From assembly GCA_964595695.1 (NCBI GenBank), contig CAZQRE010000001.1, positions 1-37,818 on the forward strand: DNA of 37,818 nucleotides, given 5' to 3'. A model generated the notes under the pieces. That model had not been told where the DNA came from. It saw only the letters and a list, made by a program, of their open reading frames with translations, and searched no databases. Below are positions 7,882-29,676 of this stretch, one piece after another. Numbering within the stretch: the stretch's first letter is position 1; every line of letters starts with the position of its first letter. Position numbers and translations under genes: made by a program. This stretch comes from an uncultured Dehalococcoidales bacterium (GTDB taxonomy: Bacteria; Chloroflexota; Dehalococcoidia; Dehalococcoidales; DAOVUZ01).

Positions 7882-8838
7882 TTATTTTTCCCCCTCCTTT
7901 CCTAATAATTGCTCTACTACCTTAGGGAAGAGCCGGTGCAAGGGGTGAGCCTCACTGGGTAAGGGGGCGCCCTCGGCATAAGCCAAGGTAGCTAGCAGGG
8001 TGGAAGCCGCAGCCACCGCCGCAAACACCCGGCTGGTGCCGGTCAGGGGGCCATAAAAAATAAAGTCGCTTCCTATAGCAGTTATCGCCTCAATAGCCGC
8101 ATCCACAGCCGGGAACTTGCTTGCACCCTCCTCACCCACAGCCTTCTTCCACATATAGGTACCGTTAGACGGAGCACAGCCCACTGGTAACCCAAATTTC
8201 TGCTTGATAAGACGATTGGCTACCAAGGAGAAGGCGGTAAGCGGTAAGCCCATGACCGATGTATCCACCAGAATGCTCTCGAAATTCCCCTTCTCCACCA
8301 GGGGCAGCATCTTCTGGAGCGACTTGACCCTTCCATTGGGTCCCTTGTCCTCCATATCGAAGGCCTGTATTACGATGTGCTTTATACCCAGCTCCTTGAG
8401 TTCCGCTACCTGCTCCTCAATGTCCGCATCCCAGGGGGTGATGCTGTTGTAAAGCAAGCGGTCCTGAAGTCCCAGCTCAGCTATATAGCGGGCTGCAGCC
8501 ACTCTTGTCTTCTGTACCCAGATATCAATGGCAAAGGGCATGTCGGTCACACCGGTGAAAAAATCCACATAGGTTTTTATCTCATCTAGTGCGTTAGCGA
8601 CCAAGCCTACCATTCCGGGCACACCTGTCTCTTGAGTGACACGTTCCAGCTCACGGATTCGTTCTTCGGCACCACTTTTGTTAAACTTGCGCTCCTTTCG
8701 GCTCTCCAGCAGCACGTCCCCTTTCTGGAACATATTGCCGATTAGGAGCGGGGCATTCTCCCCCGGTTGCCCACCCACTTTGATGCCACCAATGTTGAAA
8801 ACCTTCTGTTCCAAGTCAAATTTAAGCATCACCAACAT
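7882..8838 (-). CDS. MtrH-family methyltransferase (methylcorrinoid:tetrahydropterin/THF type)
   Basis: N-terminus MLKFDLEQKVFNIGGIKVGGQPGE and the overall sequence resemble MtrH. ATG 8829 has better Shine-Dalgarno spacing than 8838. Confidence 0.75.
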   Translation of the reverse strand: MLVMLKFDLEQKVFNIGGIKVGGQPGENAPLLIGNMFQKGDVLLESRKERKFNKSGAEERIRELERVTQETGVPGMVGLVANALDEIKTYVDFFTGVTDMPFAIDIWVQKTRVAAARYIAELGLQDRLLYNSITPWDADIEEQVAELKELGIKHIVIQAFDMEDKGPNGRVKSLQKMLPLVEKGNFESILVDTSVMGLPLTAFSLVANRLIKQKFGLPVGCAPSNGTYMWKKAVGEEGASKFPAVDAAIEAITAIGSDFIFYGPLTGTSRVFAAVAAASTLLATLAYAEGAPLPSEAHPLHRLFPKVVEQLLGKEGEK

Positions 8839-8854: not shown

Positions 8855-10816
8855 TTATTTCACTGCCTTCTCAGAGAGAAGGTGCTCTAGGTGAGGGAAC
8901 TTATCCTTCATATGGGGCAACCACATGGCCTGAGCAAAAACCTTGTCAAAATCCGGCTCCACAGTTAACTCTACATATTCCACCTGTCTTGCTATCCAGT
9001 CGGCTTCTTTCCTCTTGTCCACATTGAGGAGGGCTACGCGGGCGCCATCGCCGGCGGCATTACCCACGGAATAGACATTCTCCAAATCACAACTGGGGAA
9101 AAGGCCAAGAACCGCCGCTGATTCCTTGTCGATGAAACTGCCAAAGGCTCCAGCCAGAATGACCTTGTCCAGTTTATCCACACCCAGGTGACGCATCATC
9201 AGCTTGGCTCCAGCATACATAGCCCCTTTGGCTAGTTGTATAGCCCTCACATCAGCTTGGCAAACCACGATATCTTGGCCAATAGAGGTTTCTTTTGCCC
9301 AGGCGATTACGAATTCTCCGCCACCCTCATCAAGGTGGAAACGGGGGTGCTTCAAATCCTGGTTAAAACGTCCAGTGTGGTTGATAATACCCGCCAGGAA
9401 CAATTGAGGCACGACATCAATTATTGCCGAGCCGCAGATACCATTGGCCCCTATGTCATCCACCTCTGTATTCCAGTCCTCCCTACCGATAACCTTGAAG
9501 CGCACCTCCTTAGTCTCCTTATCTATCGCTATCTTCTCGATAGCCCCCGGAGCGGCACGACACCCAAACTTTATCTCGGCTCCCTCAAACGCCGGCCCGG
9601 TAGCACAGGAGGAGGAAATAAGCTTTTTTCGGTTGCCCAAGATTAGCTCGCCATTAGTGCCGATATCGATGACAAGTTCTATAGCATCCTGGTCGTAGGG
9701 CCTCTCGGCGAGGAGCACCCCGACATTATCCGCCCCGACAAAGCCTGCCTCAATAGGCAGGATATGAACATAAGCCCCCGGGGCTATCTTGAGTCCCAGG
9801 TCTCTGGTCTTTATATCTACGGAGTGGTGTCGGGCAGGAGGGAAAGGACACATGCCAATATACTGAGTATCAAGAGCCATAAAGAGATGGTGCATGCAAG
9901 TATTGCCGACTGCGGTCATGTCAACGATATCATGCCGCTTGATGCCTGCCGCAGCAGCCGCTCGCCCCGCGATTTTATTGAGACCCTTAACTATCTCGGC
10001 ACACATTATCTCGGCGCCGTCCTCGTGGGTCATATTGTAGGTAATACGGGACATCACATCTTCACCGTAAATTACCTGCGGATTCATCATGGATTCGGTG
10101 GCTACCACCTCGCCACTGGACAGGTCGCACAGGTAACCAACTACCGTGGTGGTGCCTATGTCGAAAGCTATACCATAACTCTTTTCGACACGTCCCGGCT
10201 CTATTAAGATAATCTCTTTATCCTGCCATACCGATACCGTTACCTTCCAGTCGCCCTTGCGCACAACTTTCTGCTCAGTCAGCAGTGCCTGATAGTCAAG
10301 AGTGAGGTCCTTCAAGCCATAGTGTTTAGTAAGTTCCGCCTGTATACGCTCAAAGTCGCCCAGAGTGTCCTCCAAGGTAGCCTTCTTTAGCTCCACATAG
10401 TATTTCTTCACCGCTGGCTTCACCACAAGCCAGGGTATCTCCCTGGCTGCTTTGCGCACAATCTGCTTTGCCAGCCGGCTCTCCTCAGGGACGAAGACCA
10501 TAACATCGCCATGGACCCAAGCCTGACAAGCCAGCCGGTAACCTTCCTTCGCCATATGTTCACTGATAAACTTCCTCTCCGGTTGCGTTAGCGGTGTGAT
10601 ATTACTCCCTTTGGAGTCAATATGGTATTTCTCGAAGAACCCCTCTTCTATCCTAACCTTACACTTGCCGCAGGTAGCCTTTTCACCGCAGACGCCTTCT
10701 ATGTCCACACCCAGCGCTACCGAAGCCTCCTTGATATTTTTCCCATCTTCAATCTCGCCTCTACGACCCGATGGTAGAAAGATAATCCTGTGCTTTTGGT
10801 TCTCCTTTTCCGGCAT
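8855..10816 (-). CDS. RACo-type corrinoid reductive activase (N-terminal 2Fe-2S ferredoxin plus ASKHA ATPase, DUF4445-like)
   Basis: 653 aa with the N-terminal Cys cluster CGEKATCGKCKV. ASKHA phosphate motifs are present (FDIGTTTV, IDIGTNGE). Confidence 0.8.
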   Translation of the reverse strand: MPEKENQKHRIIFLPSGRRGEIEDGKNIKEASVALGVDIEGVCGEKATCGKCKVRIEEGFFEKYHIDSKGSNITPLTQPERKFISEHMAKEGYRLACQAWVHGDVMVFVPEESRLAKQIVRKAAREIPWLVVKPAVKKYYVELKKATLEDTLGDFERIQAELTKHYGLKDLTLDYQALLTEQKVVRKGDWKVTVSVWQDKEIILIEPGRVEKSYGIAFDIGTTTVVGYLCDLSSGEVVATESMMNPQVIYGEDVMSRITYNMTHEDGAEIMCAEIVKGLNKIAGRAAAAAGIKRHDIVDMTAVGNTCMHHLFMALDTQYIGMCPFPPARHHSVDIKTRDLGLKIAPGAYVHILPIEAGFVGADNVGVLLAERPYDQDAIELVIDIGTNGELILGNRKKLISSSCATGPAFEGAEIKFGCRAAPGAIEKIAIDKETKEVRFKVIGREDWNTEVDDIGANGICGSAIIDVVPQLFLAGIINHTGRFNQDLKHPRFHLDEGGGEFVIAWAKETSIGQDIVVCQADVRAIQLAKGAMYAGAKLMMRHLGVDKLDKVILAGAFGSFIDKESAAVLGLFPSCDLENVYSVGNAAGDGARVALLNVDKRKEADWIARQVEYVELTVEPDFDKVFAQAMWLPHMKDKFPHLEHLLSEKAVK

Positions 10817-11039: not shown

Positions 11040-11729
11040 CTATTTCTTACTTGCCGCCGCCTCTTCTTCCTTCAGCATTCCAATCAGCCTCATCGCTTCA
11101 TCAACCGCCGTCCCAGCACTTTCCGCATATCCGTCAGCATCATATTTTTTCGCTACATCCGGGTTTATCGGAGCACCGCCTATCATAATGCGGCACCTGG
11201 GATTTTTCGCCCTTATCATCTCGATGACTTTTGGCATACCCAGCATGCTGGTCGTCATCATAGCCGACATAGCCACGATTTCAGAATCAGTCTTTAGCTG
11301 CTCCTCGACAAACTTTTCAAGTGGCACATCCCTTCCCAGGTCGAAGACATTCCAGCCAGCAACGTCAAACATCATCTTGATCAAGTTCTTGCCGATGTCG
11401 TGAACATCGCCCTCAACAACACCAATGACTACTGTCCCCGCCACTTTTGATTTTCTTCCTGAGGCAACGATGGCCGGCTTTAAGATGTCCAACCCGGCAT
11501 ACAGCGCATCGGCACACATCAGCAGTTCCGGGACAAAGTACTCCTTTTTGTTATATAGGTCGCCTACCGCCACCATCCCATCAGCCAGACCGTCCATTGT
11601 TGCCACGTAGGGGTCTACACCTTCATCCATGGCAGTGTGGCAAAGCTCCACGACTTTGTCCTCATCAAAAGCCACCACCGCTTCATGAAGTCCTTTCAGT
11701 AATTCCTTGGTTCTCTCCTCTGAAGCCAA
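11040..11729 (-). CDS. cobalamin-binding corrinoid protein (MtaC/MtbC family)
   Basis: 229 aa with the DxHxxG motif (GDVHDIGKN) and an N-terminal helical cap domain. TTG start after AAGGAGGGAG. Confidence 0.85.
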   Translation of the reverse strand: MASEERTKELLKGLHEAVVAFDEDKVVELCHTAMDEGVDPYVATMDGLADGMVAVGDLYNKKEYFVPELLMCADALYAGLDILKPAIVASGRKSKVAGTVVIGVVEGDVHDIGKNLIKMMFDVAGWNVFDLGRDVPLEKFVEEQLKTDSEIVAMSAMMTTSMLGMPKVIEMIRAKNPRCRIMIGGAPINPDVAKKYDADGYAESAGTAVDEAMRLIGMLKEEEAAASKK

Positions 11730-12244: not shown

Positions 12245-12267
12245 ATAGGCGAATAACTTCCCGGCTA

Positions 12268-12563
12268 CAATTTGACCCCGACGAGAATAGTCCCCTGACC
12301 CCACACATCAACCCCTTTAAAATAGCCATTTTTCAAGAATAAATCACAAGGTGTGCTGGGATTAGCGTAAATAATGGAGTGATATGAAAAATCGCTTCCC
12401 TCCAGGATACACCATTCCGCCGGGAGGCACGGGATGTCAAAACAGCAGACCTTCTTTATGATATCCTGGGGAAAAGATACCCTGTCCTTGTAAATAACAA
12501 AATCATCGAGCATAAACCAGACATTTTCCTTTTTTTTCAGCCTGGCGATGGTTTCCTCATCCT
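12268..12563 (-). pseudogene. truncated duplicate of an internal part of the 17219-18451 gene
   Basis: About 296 bp is roughly 95 percent identical to 17865-18159. One extra C in the C-run at 12298-12302 shifts the frame. No N- or C-terminal parts of the gene are present. Confidence 0.85.
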
Positions 12564-17218: not shown

Positions 17219-18451
17219 TTAAACCCCTTGAGCTGTTTTTATCAGATAGAGTGGTAATTCAAGGCCGCTAACAGGACCTACCAAGACGTCCCATGAGGTC
17301 AATTTTTTAATATCCGTAGCCAGACTCTTGGCCAATCCAGGGATGATGAGCCTAGAATGCTTAACTTCAGCGGCTACCTGTGAGTCTACGAGTGTTTTAA
17401 AGATTTCGAAAGGGCGAAAGGTTTTTTCCCCCACCGCATTGTCTATGCTGTAGCCTTTAGTATCTGTAATTAATAAAAATGCATCGGTAAGTGTTGCTTC
17501 AAGGATAAGCTTCAAGATGGAAACAGTTTCCCGAAAATTTCCGGTTACCAGTACCATAGAATCAGGGGTTGGATGTCCGAGCTTAATCAAAGCCGGGGTA
17601 ACCGACTCCATCATTGTATCATAGGGTATTAAAGGGAGTTCCAGCTTAAACACCTTTTCCATTACTGTTTTGATTTTATCGTCCAATACGGGGCAATTAG
17701 AAGGGAGGTTTTTGCCTTCGATTATTTGTTCGGCAAATTCTACACAACTAGCTGCTCCGCATTCACCACAGTCCACATCCGGAAGATAATTAAGCAAATC
17801 TTCCGCTTCAAGGGGATAAAGCTCTGCATATTCTTGTTCTACCGGCATCTTATTATTCCTCCTTAATTTGACCCCGATGAGAATAGTCCCCTGACCCCAC
17901 ACATCAACCCCTTTAAAATAGCTACTTTTCAAGAATAAATCACAAGGTGTGCTGGGATTAGCGTAAATAATGGAATGATATGAAAAATCGCTTCCCTCCA
18001 GGATACACCATTCTGCCGGGATGCACGGGATTTCAAAATGGCAGACCTTCTTTATGATATCCTGGGGAAAAGATACCCTGTCCTTGTAAATAACAAAATC
18101 ATCGAGCATAAACCAGACATTTTCCTTTTTTTTCAGCCTGGCGATGGCTTCCTCATCCTGAATTTCTTCGCCCACCACCGCCTCCCCCTTTTTTAAAATC
18201 AGGGAAGGAGAGCCCCACTTAAACTCCCTGTCGGTCATGGCAACATAGACCAAATCACAAGTCAGCACCTCCCTTACCCCGGTGTTGGTGACCCTACCCA
18301 GACCCATCAAGGAGTGCTTTTCGGCATCCTCCTCGATGCCCAACACCTGCTCAGCATCTTCTTCAGAAAAAGGGCTGGCTTCCACGATCCCCTTCACCTT
18401 CTTCAAGGCGGCTATCATCACAGCATCTGCCTTCGTCCGGTCTATGGTCAT
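17219..18451 (-). CDS. Fe-S / corrinoid-binding protein related to the CFeSP large subunit (AcsC) but lacking the TIM barrel, with an unknown ~210 aa N-terminal domain
   Basis: It has the Fe-S domain motif CGECGAASCVEFAEQIIEGKNLPSNCP. The C-terminal segment VLVTGNFRETV...LLITDTKGYSIDNAVGEKTF...RLIIPG...WDVLVGP parallels the AcsC/HgcA corrinoid domain as I recall it. ATGA overlap with the upstream ramA-like gene. Confidence 0.5.
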   Translation of the reverse strand: MTIDRTKADAVMIAALKKVKGIVEASPFSEEDAEQVLGIEEDAEKHSLMGLGRVTNTGVREVLTCDLVYVAMTDREFKWGSPSLILKKGEAVVGEEIQDEEAIARLKKKENVWFMLDDFVIYKDRVSFPQDIIKKVCHFEIPCIPAEWCILEGSDFSYHSIIYANPSTPCDLFLKSSYFKGVDVWGQGTILIGVKLRRNNKMPVEQEYAELYPLEAEDLLNYLPDVDCGECGAASCVEFAEQIIEGKNLPSNCPVLDDKIKTVMEKVFKLELPLIPYDTMMESVTPALIKLGHPTPDSMVLVTGNFRETVSILKLILEATLTDAFLLITDTKGYSIDNAVGEKTFRPFEIFKTLVDSQVAAEVKHSRLIIPGLAKSLATDIKKLTSWDVLVGPVSGLELPLYLIKTAQGV

Positions 18452-20136
18452 TTCTCCTCTCCCGCTGAAGAACTACTTTGTCGACCTTTAACTCCTGAAG
18501 TAAGCAATCTAATCAGGTTGAACACCTTTTCGGTACACGCCCTTTCACATCTCATACAGGCCACCCCATTACATAGGGCTAGGTCAATAATGATGGTACG
18601 CTCCTCCCCTTCTTCATCCAGGGAAAGGGCTTCCTCGGGGCATTCCTCGACGCACTTCTGGCAGCCGATGCACCCGTCAAAAGCCATCTCTTTCCGTTCT
18701 CCGATGTCGGGGATGATCTTCAGCCCCATAACCCCTAAATCTGGTATGTCCCTCTCCACCGTCTTAATAACCTGCGGAAGCTCACTGACCTCGTGCAGGG
18801 GAGGATAGCCATATTTTTCCATAAACTTTTGATACATCTTCAAGGGCATACCCTCAGTCCAGTAGGCAAGTTCAAGGATATAGACCTTCTCGAAAACCTC
18901 GGACTCGGCAAACATGCAGTGGTTTTGCCGCATCTCATCGGCTATTTTTTGCATGTTCCACAGTTCATCCACGTTTTTGACCATATCCCTGGACATAGCT
19001 AGAGAGGTATTCCCTACTTGGAAGACTCTCTTTATACCTGACGGTACCATACCTATTTGCTGGGCCTTCAGGGCATCGACATAAGTTCCGGAGGCGCCGG
19101 ACATATAAGCCGTTTCTATTTGGCTCATATCTATACCAGCCACCTGACAAAGGGTGAAATGCCCAGCCCTGACGGCGCCAATGGCCTTACCCGCCTCCTT
19201 AACATCGTGTTCTGTAAACTTGACGCCGCTGGCAAGTTTGATTTGACTATCGAGTGTGCTGATTTTGGGAAGTTTAATCAAACCGGCGTTTAGTCCCTGG
19301 CTGAGTAAGGCAACCACTCCGGTACCAGTAATGCCTACCGCCTCTAAACTCCCTTTATCCAGGACTTTCCCCGAATTAGGGTCCACTCGGTCTCCTTTTT
19401 GGGCAAACATATCCTGGTCAAGGATAAAACACTGAAGTCCGCCATCCAGGTAATCGACATCAGAGATGGCTCCGGGGAGGGCTAATAGGCCATCTTCAAT
19501 CTGTTGCCCTTCTAGGGCAGGTCCGGCAGCCGTAGAGCCGGTGTAAACGATTCCCCCTACTATGAGGGCCATTTCATTGTTAGTGCCGTAATCGGTGACA
19601 ATGGCGATTTCTTCCCTTTCGAGCACACCTGTCTGAATCATCATGGCTAAGGCGTCGGCTCCAATCTCGTGGCGAACCGCCGGTGGCATCAATATGTCTG
19701 TTTCCGTCGGTAGGTTAAGACCCCTGATATCCCGTGCCTTAATTATTTGGGCGTCTCTTCTCGGGGTGACCACCCCGAGACGTTCCAGCTTTCGTTTTCC
19801 AGCATAGGCCAAGTCTCTTATCTCAATTTCCCTGAAAAGAGAAAGCTGAATAGGGTTGCCGCAGACAGCCAACCGCACCACATCATTTTTTTCGATTCTA
19901 AGGTTGTCAATAACCCGATTGACAGCATAAACAACTACCTCATGGGCAGTTTCCAGCCCAACCTCCAGGGCAAAATGTAGGTGGTCCATTACATTAGCCC
20001 CTGGCAGGGGGTGCCGGGTAGTAATAGCGGTAGAGATTATTTTGTTCCCATTATCCAGGTCAATGGCTTGCCCCCTGAAGCCACTGGTTCCCAAATCAAA
20101 AGCAATACCCAGTTTCCCCATAACTCCTCCTGGCAA
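18448..20136 (-). CDS. ramA: RamA-type corrinoid reductive activase (ASKHA ATPase plus C-terminal 2x[4Fe-4S] ferredoxin domain)
   Basis: 562 aa with ASKHA motifs (FDLGTSGF, TDYGTNNE). Two C-terminal Cys clusters: CIGCQKCVEECP and CNGVACMRCERAC. Confidence 0.75.
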   Translation of the reverse strand: MPGGVMGKLGIAFDLGTSGFRGQAIDLDNGNKIISTAITTRHPLPGANVMDHLHFALEVGLETAHEVVVYAVNRVIDNLRIEKNDVVRLAVCGNPIQLSLFREIEIRDLAYAGKRKLERLGVVTPRRDAQIIKARDIRGLNLPTETDILMPPAVRHEIGADALAMMIQTGVLEREEIAIVTDYGTNNEMALIVGGIVYTGSTAAGPALEGQQIEDGLLALPGAISDVDYLDGGLQCFILDQDMFAQKGDRVDPNSGKVLDKGSLEAVGITGTGVVALLSQGLNAGLIKLPKISTLDSQIKLASGVKFTEHDVKEAGKAIGAVRAGHFTLCQVAGIDMSQIETAYMSGASGTYVDALKAQQIGMVPSGIKRVFQVGNTSLAMSRDMVKNVDELWNMQKIADEMRQNHCMFAESEVFEKVYILELAYWTEGMPLKMYQKFMEKYGYPPLHEVSELPQVIKTVERDIPDLGVMGLKIIPDIGERKEMAFDGCIGCQKCVEECPEEALSLDEEGEERTIIIDLALCNGVACMRCERACTEKVFNLIRLLTSGVKGRQSSSSAGEEK

Positions 20137-20195: not shown

Positions 20196-21008
20196 TCAGG
20201 CTAATGCCTGAACTGCCATGGCGGCGACACCCAGTTGCAGGGGGTCATGGATAAGTTGAACCATGTCTGGGTTCGGTTCGTCAATGCCCAGAGGTATGCC
20301 CGGCGCCGCCAGGAGCAGCCGACATTTCAGCTCCCTAACCTTGATGATGTTAGCAGAGGTGGTGGCGTCCAGCACCAGGTTGGTCTCGTCTAGAATCTCA
20401 CCCACGCTATCCGCTCCTCTTATGTCTGCCCTCCCCACCAAAAAATCGGACTGCTTCCTCTGGTCCCTGTCATGGACAATAAGCCGGGCACCGTGTGAGT
20501 GAAGCCAGCCCACCGCCGCCTGCCCCACCGGCCCTAATCCCAGGACGGCCACTGAGCGTTCAGCGACACCTCCGGCAGCGGCGGCCAAGGCAGCAGCATA
20601 AATCTCCCCCGTAGCCAGTGCATTGTCTACCAGTCGGTGGGAAATTAGGTTCAGTGCCAAAAAGGCGTCATCATCGGCAAGGAATATGATTTCTGAACCG
20701 CCGGCCACAGCCTCACCCAAGCCAGCCACATCCTGCCCTCTGGTAACCCTGCAAGGCAGCCCCAGAAAGCAGCCTATGTCAGCCACCTTTTCTGAAAAAC
20801 CGGAAATGATGCCCTGACCAGTAGTGATAGGAATAACCGCCACCCAGGATAGGGCTGCCACCCGGAACCTGTACTGTTCCAGTGTCATGTCTGTTGTCTT
20901 AAGAGCCAGTTCAAGCATTCCCATACCAGTTACAGCCTGCAGCCTCTGCTCGTATGCTTTCAAATCGATGGGTCCCGGCCTCAGGTCGTCTGTGGTCAAT
21001 CGCGTCAT
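20196..21008 (-). CDS. pylD: pyrrolysine biosynthesis dehydrogenase
   Basis: 270 aa, collinear with Methanosarcina PylD as I recall it: N-terminal LTTDDL, ITTGQGII versus VTSGNGII, Rossmann motif LGLGPVG, and APGIPLGI near the C-terminus. Confidence 0.85.
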   Translation of the reverse strand: MTRLTTDDLRPGPIDLKAYEQRLQAVTGMGMLELALKTTDMTLEQYRFRVAALSWVAVIPITTGQGIISGFSEKVADIGCFLGLPCRVTRGQDVAGLGEAVAGGSEIIFLADDDAFLALNLISHRLVDNALATGEIYAAALAAAAGGVAERSVAVLGLGPVGQAAVGWLHSHGARLIVHDRDQRKQSDFLVGRADIRGADSVGEILDETNLVLDATTSANIIKVRELKCRLLLAAPGIPLGIDEPNPDMVQLIHDPLQLGVAAMAVQALA

Positions 21009-22239
21009 GATTTCCTCCGAGTTGCGGCACTTGGTAGGTAGTATCTATAAAATCTTTCAGGTTCAACGCCGAAGCCATGCGCTCCAGGCATCTTTGCCGC
21101 TTTTCGGCAACTGCAGTCCAGTCAACTCCAGTAAAGATGAGGGTGCCCTTGAAAGCCGCCTTACCTTCCTGATAGTTAGTCAGGGCTACGGTGGCTCCGA
21201 AAAATCCACCATTTGGCCACACTCGGAGTCCGCTCCAGGGTAGTAGGCGCGTCTCGCCAATGACCTCCAGACGGGAGTCACTTACTGACCAGTGTTCCAA
21301 CCAGGCGCATCCAGGCCTGGCTGACGCCGGGTGGAGGGGCTGACCACATCCATAGACCTTTACCCATTCCTCCAGCAGGTTGATACCGGAGGCATGATAA
21401 ACAGCCATGGGCGTCTGACTGGGAAAGCGAGCATCAATCTCCAGAACAACAAGCTCCCCCCTTTTGGGGTCGGCCATGACCTCAACATCCATAAGCCCAT
21501 TAAGCTTCAGATGGCGGGCAATGTCAAGGCAGATGGTTTCAAACCTCTGATTAAGACTGTGGGACAATCTCGACGGAGCATAAACCCGCTTGCAATCCAG
21601 CTTAGCATCAAATTCCAATTCGGTGACCAGATACCCGATGCCTGCCCCTTGCCGGGCAATTACCTCCAAAGAAAGGGAAGGACCACTGTGATAGGCTTCC
21701 ACCACCATCTCTCCGTAACAGGCAGTGAGTTCCGGCAAAACAGCGTCCAAGGCAGTCCGACTCGGCACTACCTGAAGACCATGACTCCCACTGGCCGTGG
21801 ACGGCTTGACTATAACCGGAAAGCGACAATGAGGCCACTTTTCAGGGACAGGTATCCCATGGTTGGCAAAAAAGCTGTTACTGCGTATTTTAGACGATGA
21901 TACGGCATAGGCTGCAGTATCATGCAAAAATGTCACCCCGGCTTCCTCGCAAGTCTCCGCCAAAAAATCCAGGGTCCCGTTCTCTTCAGTTGTCGGTAGA
22001 ATCGCATCCATACCCGACAGCAGGCGGCGAAATCGGTCGGGCTCTTCCTGGATGTCAAAAACGTAGGCCTGATGAGCCAGTGCCAGAGCTGGCGCCCCCG
22101 GGTTACGGTCGATAACCGTAACCTGATAGCCAGCTTCTTGTGCCAGGTAGGCGGCCTCAATCCCTTGTAGAAGCCCCCCAACAAGTCCAAGGCGAAAGGA
22201 ATAACCATGCGGTTTAGGGTTCATAGCCACCAATCTCAC
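20911..22239 (-). CDS. pylC: pyrrolysine biosynthesis ATP-grasp ligase
   Basis: LVGGLLQGIEAAYLA and EIDARFPSQTP match PylC (LVGGKLQGFEAAYL, EIDARFPSQTP). The start is ambiguous between GTG 22239 and ATG 22224. The 3' end overlaps pylD by 98 nt. Confidence 0.85.
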   Translation of the reverse strand: MRLVAMNPKPHGYSFRLGLVGGLLQGIEAAYLAQEAGYQVTVIDRNPGAPALALAHQAYVFDIQEEPDRFRRLLSGMDAILPTTEENGTLDFLAETCEEAGVTFLHDTAAYAVSSSKIRSNSFFANHGIPVPEKWPHCRFPVIVKPSTASGSHGLQVVPSRTALDAVLPELTACYGEMVVEAYHSGPSLSLEVIARQGAGIGYLVTELEFDAKLDCKRVYAPSRLSHSLNQRFETICLDIARHLKLNGLMDVEVMADPKRGELVVLEIDARFPSQTPMAVYHASGINLLEEWVKVYGCGQPLHPASARPGCAWLEHWSVSDSRLEVIGETRLLPWSGLRVWPNGGFFGATVALTNYQEGKAAFKGTLIFTGVDWTAVAEKRQRCLERMASALNLKDFIDTTYQVPQLGGNHDAIDHRRPEAGTHRFESIRAEAAGCNWYGNA

Positions 22240-22292: not shown

Positions 22293-22322
22293 ATTATAAG
22301 CCCTGTCTAAATTCTTTGTCAA
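22293..22322 (-). promoter_or_regulatory. consensus sigma70 promoter for pylC-pylD-ramA
   Basis: Minus strand reads TTGACA (22322-22317), an 18 nt spacer, then TATAAT (22298-22293). Confidence 0.6.
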
Positions 22323-22473: not shown

Positions 22474-23130
22474 TTGATCCTTGCCCGTTGGCTGCGGTTT
22501 CGACTGTATCCAACGGGCAAGTGTTTTATTGGAGAGCACTTGAACACGATAGTCTTTTTTGATGGTCAAAACATCTATCGCAGTGCCAAGGACGCATGGC
22601 GGTCGACCGCTAGTGACACCTATGTTTACACATGGCCTAGCTATGATGTAGAGAAATTAGCTACAGCACTAGCTTCTCAAACTTCAGGGAGGACAATCAC
22701 ACAGATACGATTTTACACTGGTGTGCCTACTTCATACCAAAATTACCATTGGAATTGTTTTGGGGGGGAGAAGCTTAAGTATTTAGAAAGCCAAGGCATT
22801 GAAGTTTATAAAGGAAAAATCAATGCGCATAACCAAGAAAAGGGCGTTGATGTTAAAATTGCTATTGATATGATACGACTTACGTATGAGCGAAAATATG
22901 ATGTGGCGATAATTTTAAGCCAAGATAGGGATTTTGAACCAGCTATTAGTCTTGCAAAAAAGATAGCTAACGACCAAAAGCGACAACTCTTTTTTGAGTC
23001 ACACTTCATAATTGGGCCTAGTAGTGATTCGGGGAGGGGGATACCAGGGACAAAATGGATGCCGATTGACAAAGCCACTTATGACGTCTGCCTTGATGCC
23101 CAAGATTACCAAAAATCCACGACGCCCTGA
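22474..23130 (+). CDS. NYN-domain (LabA/DUF88-like) putative RNase
   Basis: IVFFDGQNIY, GVDVKIAIDM and ILSQDRDF motifs are typical of NYN domains. The probable true start is TTG 22540, after GGAGAG. Confidence 0.7.
   Translation: MILARWLRFRLYPTGKCFIGEHLNTIVFFDGQNIYRSAKDAWRSTASDTYVYTWPSYDVEKLATALASQTSGRTITQIRFYTGVPTSYQNYHWNCFGGEKLKYLESQGIEVYKGKINAHNQEKGVDVKIAIDMIRLTYERKYDVAIILSQDRDFEPAISLAKKIANDQKRQLFFESHFIIGPSSDSGRGIPGTKWMPIDKATYDVCLDAQDYQKSTTP
22481..22530 (+). promoter_or_regulatory. terminator-like leader hairpin (possible attenuator)
   Basis: Perfect 11 bp stem TTGCCCGTTGG / CCAACGGGCAA with an 18 nt loop, followed by GTGTTTTATT. It lies between the promoter and the probable start TTG 22540. 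Confidence 0.45.
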
Positions 23131-23374: not shown

Positions 23375-23791
23375 TTAAGGAGCTAGTATGGCTCCAAAGC
23401 TTGCTTGTTGTGGGTTCTCCCTAAGAAATGTCCATAGAAACTCCAATATTATACGAAGAAAGGCCTCCCAAGTTGTTTCCTCATATTTATGTGACCTTTT
23501 CCGACAACATAACGGTTTGGCTTCCTTCCATGCGATGGCGAGTTCGGGGTGTTTCTTTAGAAATACGGTTTCAAAATCCTCTATCTCTAGTCCAACCACC
23601 TCACCATTTTCAGGGTCAACTCTAATCCAAAACTCTCCATCCCAATCTACCGACGTTGCGGGGTGTGCTTTCTCAGGGCGTAGGAAAAAGGTATCCTCAT
23701 CTTCATGATATACAGGAATGAAATTCTTTATGTTACTCATAGTGTCGTAATCTATCTGAAGATTATCCAAACCGGTTATTTTTCTTCCCAT
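23375..23791 (-). CDS. hypothetical protein with a DUF2283-like core (possible antitoxin)
   Basis: WIRVDPENGEVVGLEIEDFE resembles the DUF2283 beta-core. It overlaps the upstream gene by 16 nt. Confidence 0.35.
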   Translation of the reverse strand: MGRKITGLDNLQIDYDTMSNIKNFIPVYHEDEDTFFLRPEKAHPATSVDWDGEFWIRVDPENGEVVGLEIEDFETVFLKKHPELAIAWKEAKPLCCRKRSHKYEETTWEAFLRIILEFLWTFLRENPQQASFGAILAP

Positions 23792-24120
23792 ATCAGAATA
23801 TCCCCCTTTTTCTTATTCTGACAAGCGAAAGCTGTTGAAATATAGCCCACTAAGCCCCTAAATATCCTTTTTCTGTATTTTATTGCTACCCTAAGGTATT
23901 GGGTATGAAATGGTTTGGGCAAAATAAACGGTCGGTAGATATTTTTCTGGTTGGGGTGCTTCGGGTCTTGGTAAACTTGGTATGGTTTTTCAATAGTTTC
24001 TTTAACATATGATTCACACCCTATCATTTCAGGATGTTCAAAAACTATATGATTTTCCCATGTATCCCTCGGACAAATAACAGTGATACCATCTTTGTCT
24101 AAGCATCGGAATACATCCAT
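23776..24120 (-). CDS. hypothetical small protein (possible toxin-like partner)
   Basis: 114 aa ORF whose W-x-x-H-I-x-x-x-HPEM segment is reminiscent of small nuclease-type toxins. The family was not identified. Confidence 0.3.
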   Translation of the reverse strand: MDVFRCLDKDGITVICPRDTWENHIVFEHPEMIGCESYVKETIEKPYQVYQDPKHPNQKNIYRPFILPKPFHTQYLRVAIKYRKRIFRGLVGYISTAFACQNKKKGDILIWEEK

Positions 24121-24296: not shown

Positions 24297-25127
24297 TTAG
24301 ATGTTGAGCCGTGCCCCATCCAGATAGATTAGGCTTCTACCGACACGGTGTATATTCCCATTGCCGGTAACTAACATAGCCACCCGCTCCAGCCCTACAC
24401 CCAGTCCGGCCCAGGATTCGCTGATGTTCCAGTTGCCATCCAGGGGATGGGGGCCGGTAGCGCCCGAAGCCACCTCCACCCCATTACAGACCACATCCAT
24501 GGTAAAGCCATAAACCTGAGAGGACTCTTTCACCAAATCATAGGAAAGACCGAATGTGCCCATGACCAGGTCTGCTATCTCAACTAACCGTTCTTGTGGC
24601 TTACCCAGGCAACCCAATTCCACCAAGTTTAGCATAGTGAACTCTTCCATGTGGTGGGAGCCTGTGGACTCCTTGCGCCAGCAGGAGCCTATCTCAAAAA
24701 GGCAGATTGGACGCGGCCACAGACGCTGCAAGTGTCCCAACAGAAAATAGAGGTTAGGCGCTAACATAGGGCGCAGGCAACGATTTTCATCAATCCAGAA
24801 AATCTGCTTCCACAGGGGGTCATCTTCGGTAATGTTCATTTTTTTGAGTAATCCCCGAGCCAAAAAGGCTGGGGTAGTCACCTCCACGAACCCAGCCTGC
24901 ACCAAGGCTTCGGCTACCTGCGCCGCTATTCTAATCTGGACAGGACGACGCAGACTGGTGCGGAGTCTGGTCAAGATATCCATGTTTCTTTCCGACAACT
25001 CCTTGGCCAGATGATTGAAGTAAGCGTTACGCTCCGACTCCGAGGCAAAGCTCAGTGCCAGTGCCTCAGGTTCCGCATCCAGCTCAAGGAGTCGCTGTTT
25101 TTGAGTACTTGAAAAGGTAACCTTCAT
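24297..25127 (-). CDS. pylSc: pyrrolysyl-tRNA synthetase, catalytic (C-terminal) subunit
   Basis: From ATG 25127 (MKVTFSSTQKQRLLEL) the sequence is collinear with Desulfitobacterium PylSc as I recall it. Shared segments: CLRPMLAPNLY, FEIGSCWRKES, EFTMLN, GPHPLD, GLGVGLER and SLIYLDGARLNI. Confidence 0.9.
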   Translation of the reverse strand: MKVTFSSTQKQRLLELDAEPEALALSFASESERNAYFNHLAKELSERNMDILTRLRTSLRRPVQIRIAAQVAEALVQAGFVEVTTPAFLARGLLKKMNITEDDPLWKQIFWIDENRCLRPMLAPNLYFLLGHLQRLWPRPICLFEIGSCWRKESTGSHHMEEFTMLNLVELGCLGKPQERLVEIADLVMGTFGLSYDLVKESSQVYGFTMDVVCNGVEVASGATGPHPLDGNWNISESWAGLGVGLERVAMLVTGNGNIHRVGRSLIYLDGARLNI

Positions 25128-25467
25128 GTCCGCCTTCCTTGACAAAGGAGGTCCGAGAGTATTTTTCCAGCTTCCACCCTGGCACCCGGCAACCCTGACA
25201 GGGCTTTTCGTACCACTTATTCCTGAGCCACCGTGCCAGGCGACCATTGTTGGAACGCCTAACACAGACCTTTTGGTTGCAGTGGGTAATTATGGTCATC
25301 ATGTTACCCCGGCATTTTACGGAACGGACACCATGGAGAATCCCCTTATGCGACGGCAAAAGCTTAATTCGATTTATGAGGTAATACAAGTCTTCGCCCT
25401 TCCTAAAGACCCTCTTCTTTTTCTGCTTTCCGCCAACCTCAGTGGTGACGGGACTTTGTGTTTCCAT
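25084..25467 (-). CDS. pylSn: pyrrolysyl-tRNA synthetase N-terminal tRNA-binding domain protein
   Basis: KGILHGVRSVKCRGNMMTIITHCNQKVCVRRSNNGRLARWLRNKWYEKPCQGCRV aligns with the archaeal PylRS N-domain ([55 protein letters not shown]). Confidence 0.85.
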   Translation of the reverse strand: METQSPVTTEVGGKQKKKRVFRKGEDLYYLINRIKLLPSHKGILHGVRSVKCRGNMMTIITHCNQKVCVRRSNNGRLARWLRNKWYEKPCQGCRVPGWKLEKYSRTSFVKEGGHEGYLFKYSKTATP

Positions 25468-25698: not shown

Positions 25699-26382
25699 TT
25701 ATTTCGGCCTTTGAATGGCTCTCAGCGCTCGGCGCAATATATCCAGCCAGGGTTCTACCGTTTCGGCTCTAAGGTGTTCGTAGTCCTTTGCCAACGATGC
25801 ATCTGCCACCGTCAGGTAGACCCTAGCCACTTCCGGGCTATCAAATCCCCCGCCTAGCTTATCCCCTAAAACCCTTTTTAACGAAGGGTAAAGCTTTTGG
25901 TACGGTTCCAGAAGTCCCATAATTTCGAAAATGTTACCCTCCATTTCCTCCAGGCGCGGAAAGGGTTCGCTCAAAAGCCTTTCCAAAACACGAAAATGCT
26001 CAGACAATGAACCCAGCCCACCCTGTAAGTAAGTACTGACTGCCTCCGAATCAACACTCATACAATCTATGACAGCCAGTTGGCAGTCGTCAACTGCATA
26101 AATGCTGTAACCTTCGTCACCAACTTTTAATTCTAGCTCATTTTTCACGAAATTGTGGAGAGCATCTCCCGTGACTCCGGAAGACATCTTCCCAATCATC
26201 CGTATCAACTCCCCGCTGGATTCCAGTGGAAGTTCAGCCGGAGCCTTTTCGTCAGTCTTCAAGCGGTATAGCTCGGCGTAGAAATGGCACCGCACGACTA
26301 AAGGCCGGGCCATGCTCCCGTAGGTACCAGGGTCCCAAACCTTTAACACCAGCGTGTCACCCGGCGAGCTTTCGCAGTTCAT
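25699..26382 (-). CDS. hypothetical protein, family not recognised
   Basis: 227 aa ORF with an ATGA overlap to the upstream VWA gene. No motif was recognised. Confidence 0.5.
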   Translation of the reverse strand: MNCESSPGDTLVLKVWDPGTYGSMARPLVVRCHFYAELYRLKTDEKAPAELPLESSGELIRMIGKMSSGVTGDALHNFVKNELELKVGDEGYSIYAVDDCQLAVIDCMSVDSEAVSTYLQGGLGSLSEHFRVLERLLSEPFPRLEEMEGNIFEIMGLLEPYQKLYPSLKRVLGDKLGGGFDSPEVARVYLTVADASLAKDYEHLRAETVEPWLDILRRALRAIQRPK

Positions 26383-27554
26383 CGTTCATACCCCTGTAAG
26401 CGGATGACCCTTCCGAATGGCGGCTCAAGGTAGGAATTCATAACCCAGATGACATCAAAGGGTTGATTCGAGTCCGGGTATTTCCCGTCTCCGTCCGTCA
26501 GGTAGACCAGCACCTCAGGCGGGTCATCATCTATCTTGCTGAAAACAGGACGGAAGTCGGTACCACCACCACCACTGAGGCACTTCAGGAAGGGCTCAAA
26601 ATCCGAATCATGCACCGCCATCATATCGGCATGAACGGCGGCATCGCAAGCTAAAAGCCTGGCCTGGAACGAGCTGAAGGACTGGAGGATGTTTCTCATC
26701 TCCGCCAAAAACTCGTCAAGCTGCTCATCACTCACGCTTCCCGAGGTGTCCACAGCCACCGCTATTTTTAACATTTCGGACTTAGAAGATGGATAGTATA
26801 CCCCATATTGAAGCAATCGCTTATCGGGTCTCATCCAATCGTAGTCATCGCTGGAGCGCTGCTTAATATACTGATGCAAAAGCTGATGCCAATTCAACCG
26901 AGGGTAAGCAAGTTCCCCAACTACCCGGGCAATGCCCAAGGGGAACATACCCTGATGTTTTGCCACCGCCGCCGCTTCAATCGCCCTCTGTTTCCACAAC
27001 TCCTCATCTTTACTAGCTTCAGCAGACTTATCCAATGCCTCCCTTGGTCGACTATCCGGTTGGTTGACCTTATCCCCACCCCCTTCTTCAGTGTTGTCCC
27101 ACACACCATGGTCATCCACGGTGTCTCCTTCACCACCAAGCAGGTTATCTTCGCTCAGTAGCTCATTGTAAATCTGCTCGGCGCTTTTGTTTTCAAACTC
27201 TTTTTTGTACAATATCCCCTCAGGCAAACGGAACTGGTCTTTCAAAATGGCGTTAATCGCATAGTCCGCCGCCATGTTCCACAGCCTTTTTGCTCGAGAG
27301 CCTCGTCTCCAAATGTGTCCTAGCGCCAGATGCATCACCTCGTGGGCAAAGACCCCCTCAATCTCCTCATCTTCCAGTCTATCTATCTTTTCCGGAAAAT
27401 AGTATAGGCGAATACCATCAGTCCCGGTTGGATATTCGCTCTCATGCTCCCTCAGCTCAAGATAGCTGGCGAGATAGCCAAAAAAGGGGTTCTTCAGCAG
27501 TAGCTGAACCCTGGCTCTAATTACCCTTCTCCTGACGCTCTTAGAATCACTCAT
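26379..27554 (-). CDS. VWA-domain protein with an N-terminal HExxH metallopeptidase-like domain (DUF2201-like)
   Basis: HEVMHLALGH motif in the N-terminal half and a MIDAS-like DTSGS (AVAVDTSGSV) in the C-terminal half. ATGA overlap with the AAA+ gene. Confidence 0.7.
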   Translation of the reverse strand: MSDSKSVRRRVIRARVQLLLKNPFFGYLASYLELREHESEYPTGTDGIRLYYFPEKIDRLEDEEIEGVFAHEVMHLALGHIWRRGSRAKRLWNMAADYAINAILKDQFRLPEGILYKKEFENKSAEQIYNELLSEDNLLGGEGDTVDDHGVWDNTEEGGGDKVNQPDSRPREALDKSAEASKDEELWKQRAIEAAAVAKHQGMFPLGIARVVGELAYPRLNWHQLLHQYIKQRSSDDYDWMRPDKRLLQYGVYYPSSKSEMLKIAVAVDTSGSVSDEQLDEFLAEMRNILQSFSSFQARLLACDAAVHADMMAVHDSDFEPFLKCLSGGGGTDFRPVFSKIDDDPPEVLVYLTDGDGKYPDSNQPFDVIWVMNSYLEPPFGRVIRLQGYER

Positions 27555-28555
27555 AGAATCAAATCCCGGTGCTTTTCGGCAAAATAAACAAATTCCTGTG
27601 TTTCTCTAACCGGTAACTCCGCTCTGATAGCATCCCTTACCAGCAGCACGGAAAATTCCTCAGGTAAGAGACAGGCGTATTCTATAACCCTGGCAGTTTT
27701 CTCCCTGTCCTCGCGGGCATAACAAACCAGGGCCGATACCAGAGAGTAGAGCAGGTCCGGACTCTGTGGAACCAGGTCCTCTCCGTTGAGAATCATCCTT
27801 GCATCCGGAAGCCGCTCTGTTGCCCGCAGGTAAGCTACGAATTCAGTGGCCGCACCCACGCCGATAGCACCGGCTACATCCGTTTTGCTATCAAGCCCTA
27901 TAGCCAAAATCTCGGAGACCCTCTCCCAACTTCGAGGCGTGGGAAAGGCGTGTTCCATCTTCACCGGGTCGAAGCGAAACAGTAGGTCAGGTTTAAAGCT
28001 CAAAAAACCTATTATCCTGGGGTCAATTTGATTTACATACGCCCACTTTTTCCAGTCATCAAGATTCGTTTCAACTTCCCAATGGATAAACCGATTCGCT
28101 AACGGGGCCGGCATCGGCACGGTGTAGGCCCTGTCGGTGGACTTATTTCCCGCCGCCACCACCATCCACCCATCTGGCAACACATACTCCCCAACTCTGC
28201 GGTCCAAAATAAGCTGATACGCAGCCGACTGCACTGAATGAGGCGCCAGGTTCAACTCGTCCAGGAACAAAATACCCTTTCCACTTTGCGGCAAGAAGCA
28301 GGGTGGCGACCACCTGACCGTTCCCCCATCAAACCTGGGCAGCCCCCTTAGGTCAACCGGGTCAAGCAAGGTCAACCGCAAATCCTCAAAATCTATTCCC
28401 TCCTCCTCACAGATTTGCTTGATGATGTCAGACTTACCTATCCCTGTGGAGCCCCATAAAAAGACCGGCGGAGGGTGTATTCCTGCCTCGAGGCAAAAAC
28501 TCACCATATGCCTGAGCACCTCTTTAGCTTCGTTAATGGTTTTGGTGGCGAGCAT
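27551..28555 (-). CDS. MoxR/AAA_5-type AAA+ ATPase
   Basis: Walker A motif GSTGIGKS and Walker B motif ILFLDELN; 334 aa. It starts 2 nt after the pylB stop. Confidence 0.8.
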   Translation of the reverse strand: MLATKTINEAKEVLRHMVSFCLEAGIHPPPVFLWGSTGIGKSDIIKQICEEEGIDFEDLRLTLLDPVDLRGLPRFDGGTVRWSPPCFLPQSGKGILFLDELNLAPHSVQSAAYQLILDRRVGEYVLPDGWMVVAAGNKSTDRAYTVPMPAPLANRFIHWEVETNLDDWKKWAYVNQIDPRIIGFLSFKPDLLFRFDPVKMEHAFPTPRSWERVSEILAIGLDSKTDVAGAIGVGAATEFVAYLRATERLPDARMILNGEDLVPQSPDLLYSLVSALVCYAREDREKTARVIEYACLLPEEFSVLLVRDAIRAELPVRETQEFVYFAEKHRDLIL

Positions 28556-28557
28556 CT

Positions 28558-29676
28558 TTATGACCTCTTCTTTTTACTCAGCCGCTTTTCCTTTTTAATC
28601 CACTGTTGGTACACTGATACCGGGGCTACCCTCAGACCCAGCCGTTCAATCACCGGGGTCACCACCGACACCGTCCGCAGCCCGTCTTCAATACCTAACT
28701 GAGACCTGGATACCCCCGCCAGTCCATACCGCGGTGGTATCATCGAAGTCACTACATTGGCTCCAGCATTCAATCGAGCCTCAAGACCCTGAACACCATC
28801 CACATCCAGCGAGGCTGGTATCAGCCGCTCGGGAAAGCAAATACGAAAGGTGGCAATAGTTCGTAATTCATTCAGTGAATCCGGTGCTGGCCAATTAGCC
28901 ATCGGGGTGCCACGCTGAGGTCTGAAGGTCATCGCCCGCACCTGGCTGGGGCAAAGGCTTTCTATGGCTTTTACTGCCAATGCTCCGTCAGCGGGGCTGT
29001 CTCCTACCCCTAGCAGCAGCCCCTCTTCAATAAGCAATCCGACCTGGCGGGCATTCACCTTAGCTGCCAGACGTCTATCAAAATCTTGCTCTATACGCAA
29101 GCGGGCAAAAAGACTTTCATTAAAGGTTTCCTGGTAACAGGCATACCAATCCACCCCGAGGCGGGCAATTTCAACCAGGGTTCCTGGTGTTAAAACGCCG
29201 GGGGAAACCATAACTGATAACGGGACAGCTTCGCGCACCTCATACACCATTTCCAGAAGCCTCCCCCCACCCCCCTCCAGGTAGTAAGGGTCTTCTCCCA
29301 TGGTCAAATCCAGCAGGTGAACCCCATCGGCGGCTAATGCCCGGGCGATATCGAGTATGACCTTTATATTTTTGCGGTAACGAGGCGAGGCGCTGTTGCC
29401 CTCCCGATAAAGACAAAAATTGCAGTGGTTTTGGCAGTAGGTGGATAGATAAACAAAACCGTAAAGGAAGACCTCCTCCCCGAAGACGCGCTCCCTGAGT
29501 GCCCGGGCGGTGGCAAAGAGGCTATCCAGGGGTTTACCCGGTGGTGTGGCTAAAAGCGAAGTCACCTCTACCTCATCCAGGGGCTGCCCGCACCAGGCCT
29601 TTTCTAAAATGGGTTCAAGAGTTTTCATGGTTTTGAGCACCTGCTCCAAACCTTGCCTCCGCCACTGGCTAGGCAA
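28558..29676 (-). CDS. pylB: radical SAM methylornithine synthase
   Basis: CxxxCxxC motif (CQNHCNFCLY), BioB-like size, and the pyl context. The start is ambiguous between TTG 29676 and ATG 29628. Confidence 0.8.
   Translation of the reverse strand: MPSQWRRQGLEQVLKTMKTLEPILEKAWCGQPLDEVEVTSLLATPPGKPLDSLFATARALRERVFGEEVFLYGFVYLSTYCQNHCNFCLYREGNSASPRYRKNIKVILDIARALAADGVHLLDLTMGEDPYYLEGGGGRLLEMVYEVREAVPLSVMVSPGVLTPGTLVEIARLGVDWYACYQETFNESLFARLRIEQDFDRRLAAKVNARQVGLLIEEGLLLGVGDSPADGALAVKAIESLCPSQVRAMTFRPQRGTPMANWPAPDSLNELRTIATFRICFPERLIPASLDVDGVQGLEARLNAGANVVTSMIPPRYGLAGVSRSQLGIEDGLRTVSVVTPVIERLGLRVAPVSVYQQWIKKEKRLSKKKRS

Follow-up and report, generated by a model that had tools for sequence, protein, structure and literature searches.

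Locus and gene organization

The DNA analyzed here is a stretch of 37,818 nucleotides from an uncultured Dehalococcoidales bacterium (contig CAZQRE010000001.1), which is called the window throughout; all coordinates are positions in it, and labels such as L001 and P0226 denote relative loci and relative proteins. The study concerns a minus-strand open reading frame (ORF) of 410 amino acids in which an N-terminal module, a short linker and a C-terminal module related to the corrinoid iron-sulfur protein (CFeSP), here named mini-CFeSP, are joined in one frame. The positions of all features are collected in Table 1. The ORF overlaps by four bases (ATGA) the gene ramA, the junction being GAG GAG AAA TGA / ATG ACC, and pylD and pylC lie upstream of both on the same strand. 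The RamA protein was matched over its full length by TIGR04270 in the NCBIfam scan (780 bits against a cut-off of 500) and contains the domains Raco_middle, RACo_C_ter (4.6e-60; ASKHA) and, at residues 489–537 near the C-terminus, Fer4_7 of the 2x[4Fe-4S] ferredoxin type; the ATP-dependent reduction of Co(II) corrinoid proteins is predicted for it. The consensus promoter match before pylC suggests that pylC, pylD, ramA and the fused gene form a single transcription unit, and the downstream neighbour of the fused ORF is a convergent AmiS-like gene. The overlap with a RamA-type activase and the location downstream of pylCD on the same strand were already given in the first-pass annotation, which was made from the letters alone, and both are borne out, the former by the junction DNA and the TIGR04270 score and the latter by the TIGR03911 and TIGR03909 matches.

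The 410-amino-acid protein is a recent fusion, found in a small clade of Dehalococcoidales, of two genes which are separate almost everywhere else.

Origin and reality of the fusion

The junction of the two modules reads GTC AAA TTA AGG AGG AAT AAT AAG ATG CCG (V K L R R N N K M P). In unfused relatives the first gene ends in ...GTCAAATTG TAG, which is followed by at least 170 nt and then by ...TTGAAGGAGGAATAATA(A/C)G ATG CC..., the start of the second gene. This comparison of the junction DNA with the unfused relatives shows that the fusion is a deletion. The lost DNA begins at the last codon of gene 1 and stops shortly before the Shine-Dalgarno sequence of gene 2, and TTG stands at either edge. 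RRNNK, the linker, is thus the translated remainder of the former ribosome-binding site and spacer, and M202 is the former start codon. The sequence AAGGAGG at 17858–17864 still stands before the ATG of M202 (17846–17848) with a 9-nt spacer, and it is kept before M202 in all the fused genes; because the ribosome-binding site and the ATG are both retained, internal initiation at M202 may also supply a free C module of 209 amino acids.

The identical RRNNK linker was read directly in four loci (the window, L003, L017 and L085), and at least 10 members of the 90% cluster are fused proteins of 406–413 amino acids on separate contigs from NCBI, ENA and JGI assemblies. A frameshift or an assembly artefact is ruled out by the identical linker in independent assemblies and by these cluster members. 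The protein is also not near-unique, as a word-indexed search with the whole protein (3 matches) had made it appear; this was ruled out by exhaustive and profile searches done with each half separately.

The ratio of non-synonymous to synonymous substitution rates (dN/dS) between the fused genes is 0.37–0.53 for the N half and 0.12–0.26 for the C half, and both halves are under purifying selection. The full-length AlphaFold model has a mean predicted local distance difference test score (pLDDT) of 90.0 and a predicted template modelling score (pTM) of 0.56; the linker is disordered, with pLDDT below 50 at residues 201–203.

The mini-CFeSP module

Residues 202–410 are assigned to the mini-CFeSP family on the basis of the profile and alignment evidence. 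Pfam FeS (PF04060) covers residues 223–255 (E 2e-10), where the iron-sulfur motif is C228-x2-C231-x4-C236-x16-C253 (CX2CX4CX16C), and Pfam CdhD (PF03599) covers residues 284–394 (E 7.5e-12), only positions 268–378 of its 387 being used. In alignments to the solved CFeSP large subunits (2h9a, 4c1n, 4djd), residues 218–275 correspond to chain 7–64 and residues 283–395 to chain 319–431, while the TIM barrel of about 255 residues (2h9a chain 65–318) is replaced by 7 residues (276–282); the protein ends 4 residues past the corrinoid domain. The PDB sequence matches of the corrinoid domain range from E 1e-11 to 1e-17. The NCBIfam profiles of CdhE (NF003195; 116.6 bits against a cut-off of 306) and HgcA (NF040863; E 5e-18, 65 bits against 275) gave partial matches. 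By Foldseek the C-terminal ~130 residues were superposed on 2ycl with a root-mean-square deviation (rmsd) of 2.3 A over 131 columns, and matches were also obtained to 4c1n, 4djd and 9fzy (CFeSP) and to the HgcA model 9a0b, all at probability 1.00.

All 50 family members compared keep the four cysteines, and in the same set T303/N305/F306, G333-Y-S, D337-N338-A339, I370-P-G-L-A and G392-P-V-S-G are invariant or almost invariant. Aligned to 2h9a without gaps (offset 36), N338 falls on Thr374 of CoFeSP, which lies ~3.5 A below the cobalt on its alpha face (PMC4934906). As the cofactor-facing helix is strictly conserved, we infer that the domain still binds a corrinoid. The Cys ligand of HgcA is reportedly found at the position matching Thr374 and N338.

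The family is widespread in the form of stand-alone proteins: a profile of residues 205–410 retrieved at least 491 clusters of 205–213 amino acids having PF04060 and PF03599. The closest of them are 82–88% identical, 205–209 amino acids long, and the stand-alone proteins begin with MP(V/I)EQEYAELYPLE, which corresponds to window residues 202 onward; the start typical of the family is M-x-(V/I)-E-Q-E. In the source databases they are annotated as hypothetical, as "(Fe-S)-binding protein" or as "CO dehydrogenase/acetyl-CoA synthase gamma subunit".

The N module

Residues 1–196 belong to an unnamed family of ~196 amino acids which is normally encoded beside ramA. No Pfam match was obtained for residues 1 to ~200 even at E = 10, nor any Pfam or NCBIfam match among 54 family members. 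An exhaustive phmmer search with residues 1–212 against 1.84 billion representatives returned 117 relatives (59 at E <= 1e-10), almost all of them stand-alone proteins of 185–210 amino acids covering about residues 10–197 of the query, and the profile search with the N half gave 356 clusters. One relative, P0226 (196 amino acids), is 87% identical and ends in ...GTILIGVKL-stop exactly at window residue 196.

The conserved motifs of the family are E40, N56-x-G58, G94-E-E, FV(I/V)YK, PSxPxDxxLK and GT(I/V)L(I/V)G. No conserved Cys or His was seen across the family, and a metal centre in this module is therefore unlikely. The AlphaFold 2 model of the module (63 sequences) has a mixed alpha/beta fold with pLDDT 87.6 and pTM 0.83; Foldseek gave no match of it in the PDB (best E 0.28, TM 0.15), and the family profile found nothing among PDB sequences below E 1.9. 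Kinship to a solved fold or a known family is thus ruled out by the structural search, the profile search and the Pfam and NCBIfam blanks. Identity with DUF1638 (PF07796), an idea which came from the order DUF2284, DUF1638, mini-CFeSP in L001, was rejected at both the sequence and the profile level, there being no hmmscan match up to E = 10, a BLASTP E of 4.8 and an hhalign probability of 0.4%. Since DUF1638 and the N family are both present in one cluster in L126 and L141, they are not simple substitutes for each other.

Most of the earlier reading of this protein stands. The first-pass annotation had noticed the iron-sulfur motif of CFeSP, which agrees with PF04060 and with the alignment to solved CFeSPs, and a C-terminal Rossmann segment like that of AcsC/HgcA, whose strings VLVTGNF, DTKG...EKTF, LIIPG and VLVGP are all present and whose relation to the B12-binding Rossmann domains of the CFeSP/HgcA type is supported by sequence and predicted structure. 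The absence of the TIM barrel was confirmed by the alignments to 2h9a, 4c1n and 4djd, and the unrecognised N-terminal domain remains without a Pfam, NCBIfam or PDB match, its extent here being residues 1–196. The domains were therefore correctly read, but the picture of one protein that lacks its barrel and begins with a new domain has to be replaced by that of two separate genes which were fused, and neither half belongs to any characterised family. The roles suggested in the first-pass annotation, a corrinoid carrier or an electron-transfer partner in corrinoid reactivation, would be compatible with the gene neighbourhoods.

Gene neighbourhoods of the two families

The neighbourhood survey was done on 60 bacterial GTDB species-representative genomes having the N gene. 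A ramA orthologue directly adjoins it on the same strand in 51/60 (40 upstream, 11 downstream), and the two genes are often translationally coupled in the relatives. No more than 6 kb separates the N gene from the methanol methyltransferase gene mtaB in 43 of the genomes and from a mini-CFeSP gene in 14, and the fused ORF was found in one (L017, a Dehalococcoidales metagenome-assembled genome). The distant N-family members of Bathyarchaeia genomes (n=8; 23–30% identity) have no adjoining ramA; DUF2284 also follows such distant archaeal genes (L011, L080, L084).

The order of the genes in unfused clusters varies. In L004, L005 and L006, which share ~90% DNA identity with the window, pylD and ramA are followed by the 196-amino-acid gene (with the 4-base overlap) and by genes for a MtaC-like protein, a RACo-type activase and a MtrH-like protein. 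The order is ramA, N gene, a 181-nt gap and mini-CFeSP gene in L016; mtaB, ramA, N gene and mini-CFeSP gene in L149; mtaB, ramA, N gene, DUF1638 and mini-CFeSP gene in L126; and ramA, N gene, insertion sequence (IS) remnants and mini-CFeSP gene in L012/L013, where amiS-cobW-mtaC-mtaB converge on the other strand. The IS remnants (HTH_Tnp_1 and HTH_21, at 6980–7673 of L012/L013) lie exactly between the N and mini-CFeSP genes. The junction of these two genes appears to be a hot spot of rearrangement. In Syntrophobacteraceae-type clusters (L007–L009, for example L007 6011–6211), a conserved ORF of 66 amino acids with no Pfam match lies between mtaB and ramA.

Metagenomic mini-CFeSP genes occur in three settings: in ramA/mta clusters with mtaB/mtaC/cobW, directly behind DUF1638 (9 loci) and behind a DGC-domain gene. 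The trio DUF2284-DUF1638-mini-CFeSP is recurrent (L001 3778–5736, L130, L138, L126 and L141), and in L001 it adjoins a cobT/bza-type block for lower-ligand biosynthesis.

Insertion and recombination at the window copy

The window differs from its close relatives L004–L006 by a segment of 5,301 bp, which carries mtaB, mtaC, cobW-like and AmiS/UreI-like genes on the plus strand and, on the minus strand, the mini-CFeSP part of the fused gene. By blastn, L004 1–4212 corresponds to window 22075–17865 and L004 3918–9296 to window 12563–7179. The segment is flanked by the two copies of a 295-bp direct repeat, which are identical at 285/295 positions (97%). Copy 2 is a pseudogene, with an ORF of 82 amino acids (12265–12513) still ending in GVKL-TAG, and it is contiguous with the ancestral downstream DNA, being collinear with L004 3918–4484.

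When the window was compared in 100-nt bins with L085, which is fused too, the identity was 72–93% upstream of ~18000 and 95–100% downstream; the recombination breakpoint is placed near 18000 because the identity to L085 jumps there. The fused gene of the window is thus a recombinant: an L004-like backbone supplied its 5' part, and an L085-like donor supplied its 3' part along with the mta segment. This copy arrived with or next to the mtaB-mtaC-cobW-amiS segment through recombination inside gene 1. A simple Campbell-type insertion was tried as an explanation of everything and is only partly supported: the insertion and the repeat are clear, but the fusion is older. As the fused gene was already present in the L085-like lineage, the insertion moved the fusion rather than created it.

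Other genes of the window

The window is predicted to carry a complete pyrrolysine system (Table 1), and the in-frame TAG of mtmB fits read-through as pyrrolysine. The genomes that match the window most closely are metagenome-assembled genomes of Dehalococcoidales, which points to this order as its probable source. ORFs of a DUF2201 metallopeptidase/VWA-like type and unassigned ones (25699–28555) are interleaved with the pyl genes. Between pylC and the PylS-like gene lie a gene for a NYN-domain protein (22474–23130, +) and several small unassigned minus-strand ORFs (23375–24120), which together may be a mobile or toxin-antitoxin-like insert. A CobS gene is also present in the window. The second methyl-transfer set includes a RACo-type activase, and therefore the locus holds two different activases.

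Table 1. Positions of the features discussed, in order along the window (aa, amino acids)
Feature	Position	Strand	Basis or remark
Second methyl-transfer set, collinear with L004	2949–11729	-	
MtaA/URO-D-like genes, three	6800–7879, 5546–6613, 2949–3953	-	
CobA	4272–4805	-	
DUF2284	4850–5482	-	
MtrH-like	7882–8838	-	
RACo-type activase, N-terminal 2Fe-2S domain	8855–10816	-	
MtaC-like corrinoid protein	11040–11729	-	
295-bp direct repeat, copy 2	12269–12563	-	truncated N-gene remnant, upstream of mtaB
5.3-kb segment absent from L004–L006	12564–17864		blastn
Fused ORF, 410 aa (N module, linker, mini-CFeSP module)	17219–18451	-	ORF listing
Corrinoid-binding Rossmann-type domain, residues 283–406	17234–17605	-	C-terminal part of PF03599, PDB matches, Foldseek
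[4Fe-4S] domain, residues 223–255, Cys 228/231/236/253	17687–17785	-	PF04060
Linker RRNNK, residues 197–201	17849–17863	-	junction DNA against unfused relatives
N module, residues 1–196	17864–18451	-	phmmer and profile searches, AlphaFold 2 model
295-bp direct repeat, copy 1	17865–18159	-	residues ~98–196 of the N module
ramA, 562 aa, ATP-dependent corrinoid reductive activase	18448–20136	-	TIGR04270, RACo_C_ter, Fer4_7
pylD	20196–21008	-	TIGR03911, 198 bits (cut-off 150)
pylC	20911–22239	-	TIGR03909, 326 bits (cut-off 248)
Sigma-70-like promoter TTGACA-18-TATAAT, 12/12, just upstream of pylC	22293–22322	-	pattern scan; consensus match only
PylS-like gene, class II aminoacyl-tRNA synthetase-like	24297–25265	-	
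tRNA-Pyl, CUA anticodon	25500–25571	-	
Radical-SAM gene, possible pylB	28558–29676	-	
mtmB, one in-frame TAG (...GMAM*GNE...)	29841–31232	-	monomethylamine methyltransferase
mtmC	31317–31955		adjoins mtmB
Ammonium transporter	32123–33307		near mtmB/mtmC

Comparison with known systems

Among the closest known systems are the CFeSP large subunits (AcsC/CfsA/CdhE; 2h9a, 2ycl, 4djd, 9fzy), with which the window protein shares the [4Fe-4S] domain of the pattern CX2CX4CX16C and the C-terminal corrinoid Rossmann-type domain, the Foldseek rmsd being 2.3–3.0 A over ~130 columns. Unlike them it has no barrel, its gene lies with ramA/pyl/mta genes and not with acs/cdh, and beneath the cobalt, where they have Thr, it has the invariant Asn of YS(V/I)DNA(V/I). 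No gene for a small subunit (AcsD/CdhD) was found, with no PF03599 match in the other 27 window ORFs scanned. It is thus ruled out as a CFeSP large subunit proper by the missing barrel, the missing small-subunit partner and the CdhE score far under its cut-off. HgcA has a homologous corrinoid-binding domain (the match to the 9a0b model is at 32% identity) and is marked by the cap-helix motif N(V/I)WC(A/S) (PMC10083202). The window protein has YSIDNAVGEK in place of this Cys motif, no transmembrane domain and no adjoining hgcB, and it possesses the iron-sulfur domain which HgcA lacks; for these reasons, and with an HgcA score far below the threshold of that profile, HgcA proper is ruled out as well.

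As in the RACo-CoFeSP pair (4c1n) and in methanogen RamA, an ASKHA-type ATP-dependent activase with its own iron-sulfur domain is encoded beside a protein with a CFeSP-type corrinoid domain. The activase of the window is, however, of the RamA type, with a C-terminal 2x[4Fe-4S] domain, and not of the RACo type, with an N-terminal [2Fe-2S] domain; its corrinoid protein is a two-domain stump, with the N module of no solved fold sitting in between, and the canonical RamA substrates MtaC/MtmC are present in the same locus. The latter (PF02607 + PF02310) are small corrinoid proteins that take part in methylotrophic methyl transfer, and they are encoded in the window like the fused protein and are known RamA clients, but they have a different B12 fold and binding mode (His-on DxHxxG, helical cap), carry no iron-sulfur cluster and show no sequence kinship to the window protein.

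The N module may be compared with DUF1638 and its RamA-like DUF4445 partners, since both are of ~200 amino acids and tied to a RamA-like activase and to B12-dependent methyl transfer; for DUF1638 the tie rests on genetics and phylogenetic profile (Price et al. 2018, PMC5764234). The two differ in having no detectable homology and in standing together in one cluster. Full-text searches of the literature, in which subscription journals are thinly covered, gave no description of the N family or of the mini-CFeSP family, and a published PF03599 phylogeny recognises only HgcA, CdhD and CdhE (PMC10083202).

Proposed function and its alternatives

While the anatomy and the origin of the fusion are nearly certain, its mechanism is not. 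We lean, by a modest preference, to the reading that the N module and the mini-CFeSP are a helper unit of RamA-dependent reductive activation, that is, an accessory redox/corrinoid unit. Both modules would work together with RamA as a single unit, in which the N module would be an adaptor that binds RamA. The mini-CFeSP would contribute a [4Fe-4S] cluster of low potential and a corrinoid in the base-off, His-off state, the lower face of which would be met by the invariant Asn, and the docking of RamA on the corrinoid domain would resemble that of its homologue RACo on CoFeSP. Low-potential electrons could then be supplied or buffered by the unit when inactive Co(II) is reduced to Co(I), at the expense of ATP, in carriers of the MtaC/MtmC type.

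This proposal of a helper unit is supported by the tight genomic association between the N family and ramA and by the recurrence of both families in methanol (mta) clusters. It also has a precedent in the RACo-CoFeSP activation complex, which was solved (4c1n) and whose corrinoid domain matches the mini-CFeSP. A further support comes from DUF1638, a protein of ~200 amino acids which co-occurs with RamA-like proteins and is required for B12-dependent methionine synthase (PMC5764234; PMC12478193): in the nine metagenomic loci mentioned above it directly precedes the mini-CFeSP gene, in the position of the N module.

Several points weigh against the helper unit. The cofactor binding and the RamA interaction of both families are matters which we infer. 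The mini-CFeSP gene is near the N gene in only 14/60 genomes, and elsewhere it follows a DGC-domain gene or DUF1638/DUF2284 with no ramA present; its role may therefore be broader than the support of RamA. Purified methanogen RamA reportedly works without such partners, and therefore the unit is not universally required. The N-half dN/dS of the fused genes exceeds the 0.29 of the stand-alone comparison, which could be a sign of some relaxation, and the mutual arrangement of the domains in the full-length model is not confident (pTM 0.56), with no confident contact between N and C.

A specific and bolder scheme, to which we assign little probability, is that RamA, the ~196-amino-acid protein and the mini-CFeSP make up a three-component electron-input module. 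In this module a second base-off corrinoid would sit over the invariant Asn, connected to a [4Fe-4S] cluster of its own, and serve as a redox mediator or a Co(I) store, and electrons of very low potential would be delivered to the His-on corrinoid methyl carriers. If true, this module would be the missing physiological donor side of bacterial RamA-type activation, and possibly also of the DUF1638-dependent systems.

Among the alternatives to the helper unit, the best surviving one, unlikely as we consider it, is a minimal two-part methyl-carrying CFeSP, in which the N module would stand in for the absent TIM barrel and small subunit and cap the upper face of the corrinoid, and RamA would be its dedicated activase and not be helped by it, mirroring RACo + CfsB + CfsA. 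Both cofactor-bearing parts of CFeSP are indeed kept with invariant pocket motifs, the fusion implies that N and C are parts of a single unit, RACo binds exactly such a domain in 4c1n, and the clusters hold MtaA-like and MtrH-like methyltransferases as possible users. The same clusters, however, already encode canonical MtaC/MtmC methyl carriers, and the N gene is linked far more tightly to ramA (51/60) than to the C gene (14/60). The barrel and the small subunit, by which the methyl donor and acceptor dock in CFeSP, are absent, and the model has no confident interface between N and C.

It is also conceivable, at a lower probability, that the fusion is functionally meaningless, being a neutral deletion of the stop codon and spacer after which the C module is made mainly from its own start at M202 and the 410-amino-acid product is minor or tolerated, in which case the fusion would carry no information on an interaction of N with C. 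The perfect AAGGAGG 9 nt before M202 in every fused gene, the restriction of the fusion to one small clade (1/60 species genomes), the disordered linker and the somewhat raised N-half dN/dS would all suit such a case, and yet no stop has closed the fused frame in lineages with N halves 13–16% apart in protein sequence, or in at least 10 sequences, with both halves under purifying selection. There is no stop before M202, and with the ramA overlap the ribosomes read through, so the fused protein must form; moreover, many clusters without the fusion have the two genes side by side.

A chaperone for corrinoid trafficking or loading, which would give base-off corrinoid to apo-MtaC/MtmC or take damaged cofactor from them, is given little credence: the mini-CFeSP gene does recur by cobW-like GTPases, DUF2284, DUF1638, CobA and the CobT/bza block of L001, the unit would work with these neighbouring cobalamin-handling genes, and CFeSP-type domains bury the nucleotide tail of the base-off cofactor, but the strictly conserved [4Fe-4S] motif of the low-potential type is unneeded for carriage, the CobW-like GTPases of mta clusters may just as well insert zinc into MtaB/MtaA, and we know of no CFeSP-type domain that serves as a chaperone.

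Significance of the findings

1. Corrinoid methyltransferase systems all need the reductive reactivation of Co(II), and to our knowledge neither an in-vivo electron supply nor a partner protein is known for RamA-type activases. The window protein, as judged from its sequence, is a CFeSP-derived two-domain corrinoid/Fe-S module fused to a RamA-linked protein which has no solved fold relative, and the prediction from this fusion is that the two proteins work jointly.

2. The new point is that both halves are widespread stand-alone proteins; neither family seems to have been characterised. The locus points to two widespread unnamed families of hundreds of clusters in Desulfobacterota, Dehalococcoidia and Bathyarchaeia, which sit with ramA/mta genes and are annotated only as "hypothetical", as "(Fe-S)-binding protein" or, wrongly, as "acetyl-CoA synthase gamma subunit".

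3. The mini-CFeSP would add a fourth branch to PF03599 beside CdhD, CdhE and HgcA, and metagenome surveys should leave its genes out when they count markers of the Wood-Ljungdahl pathway (acsC/cdhE).

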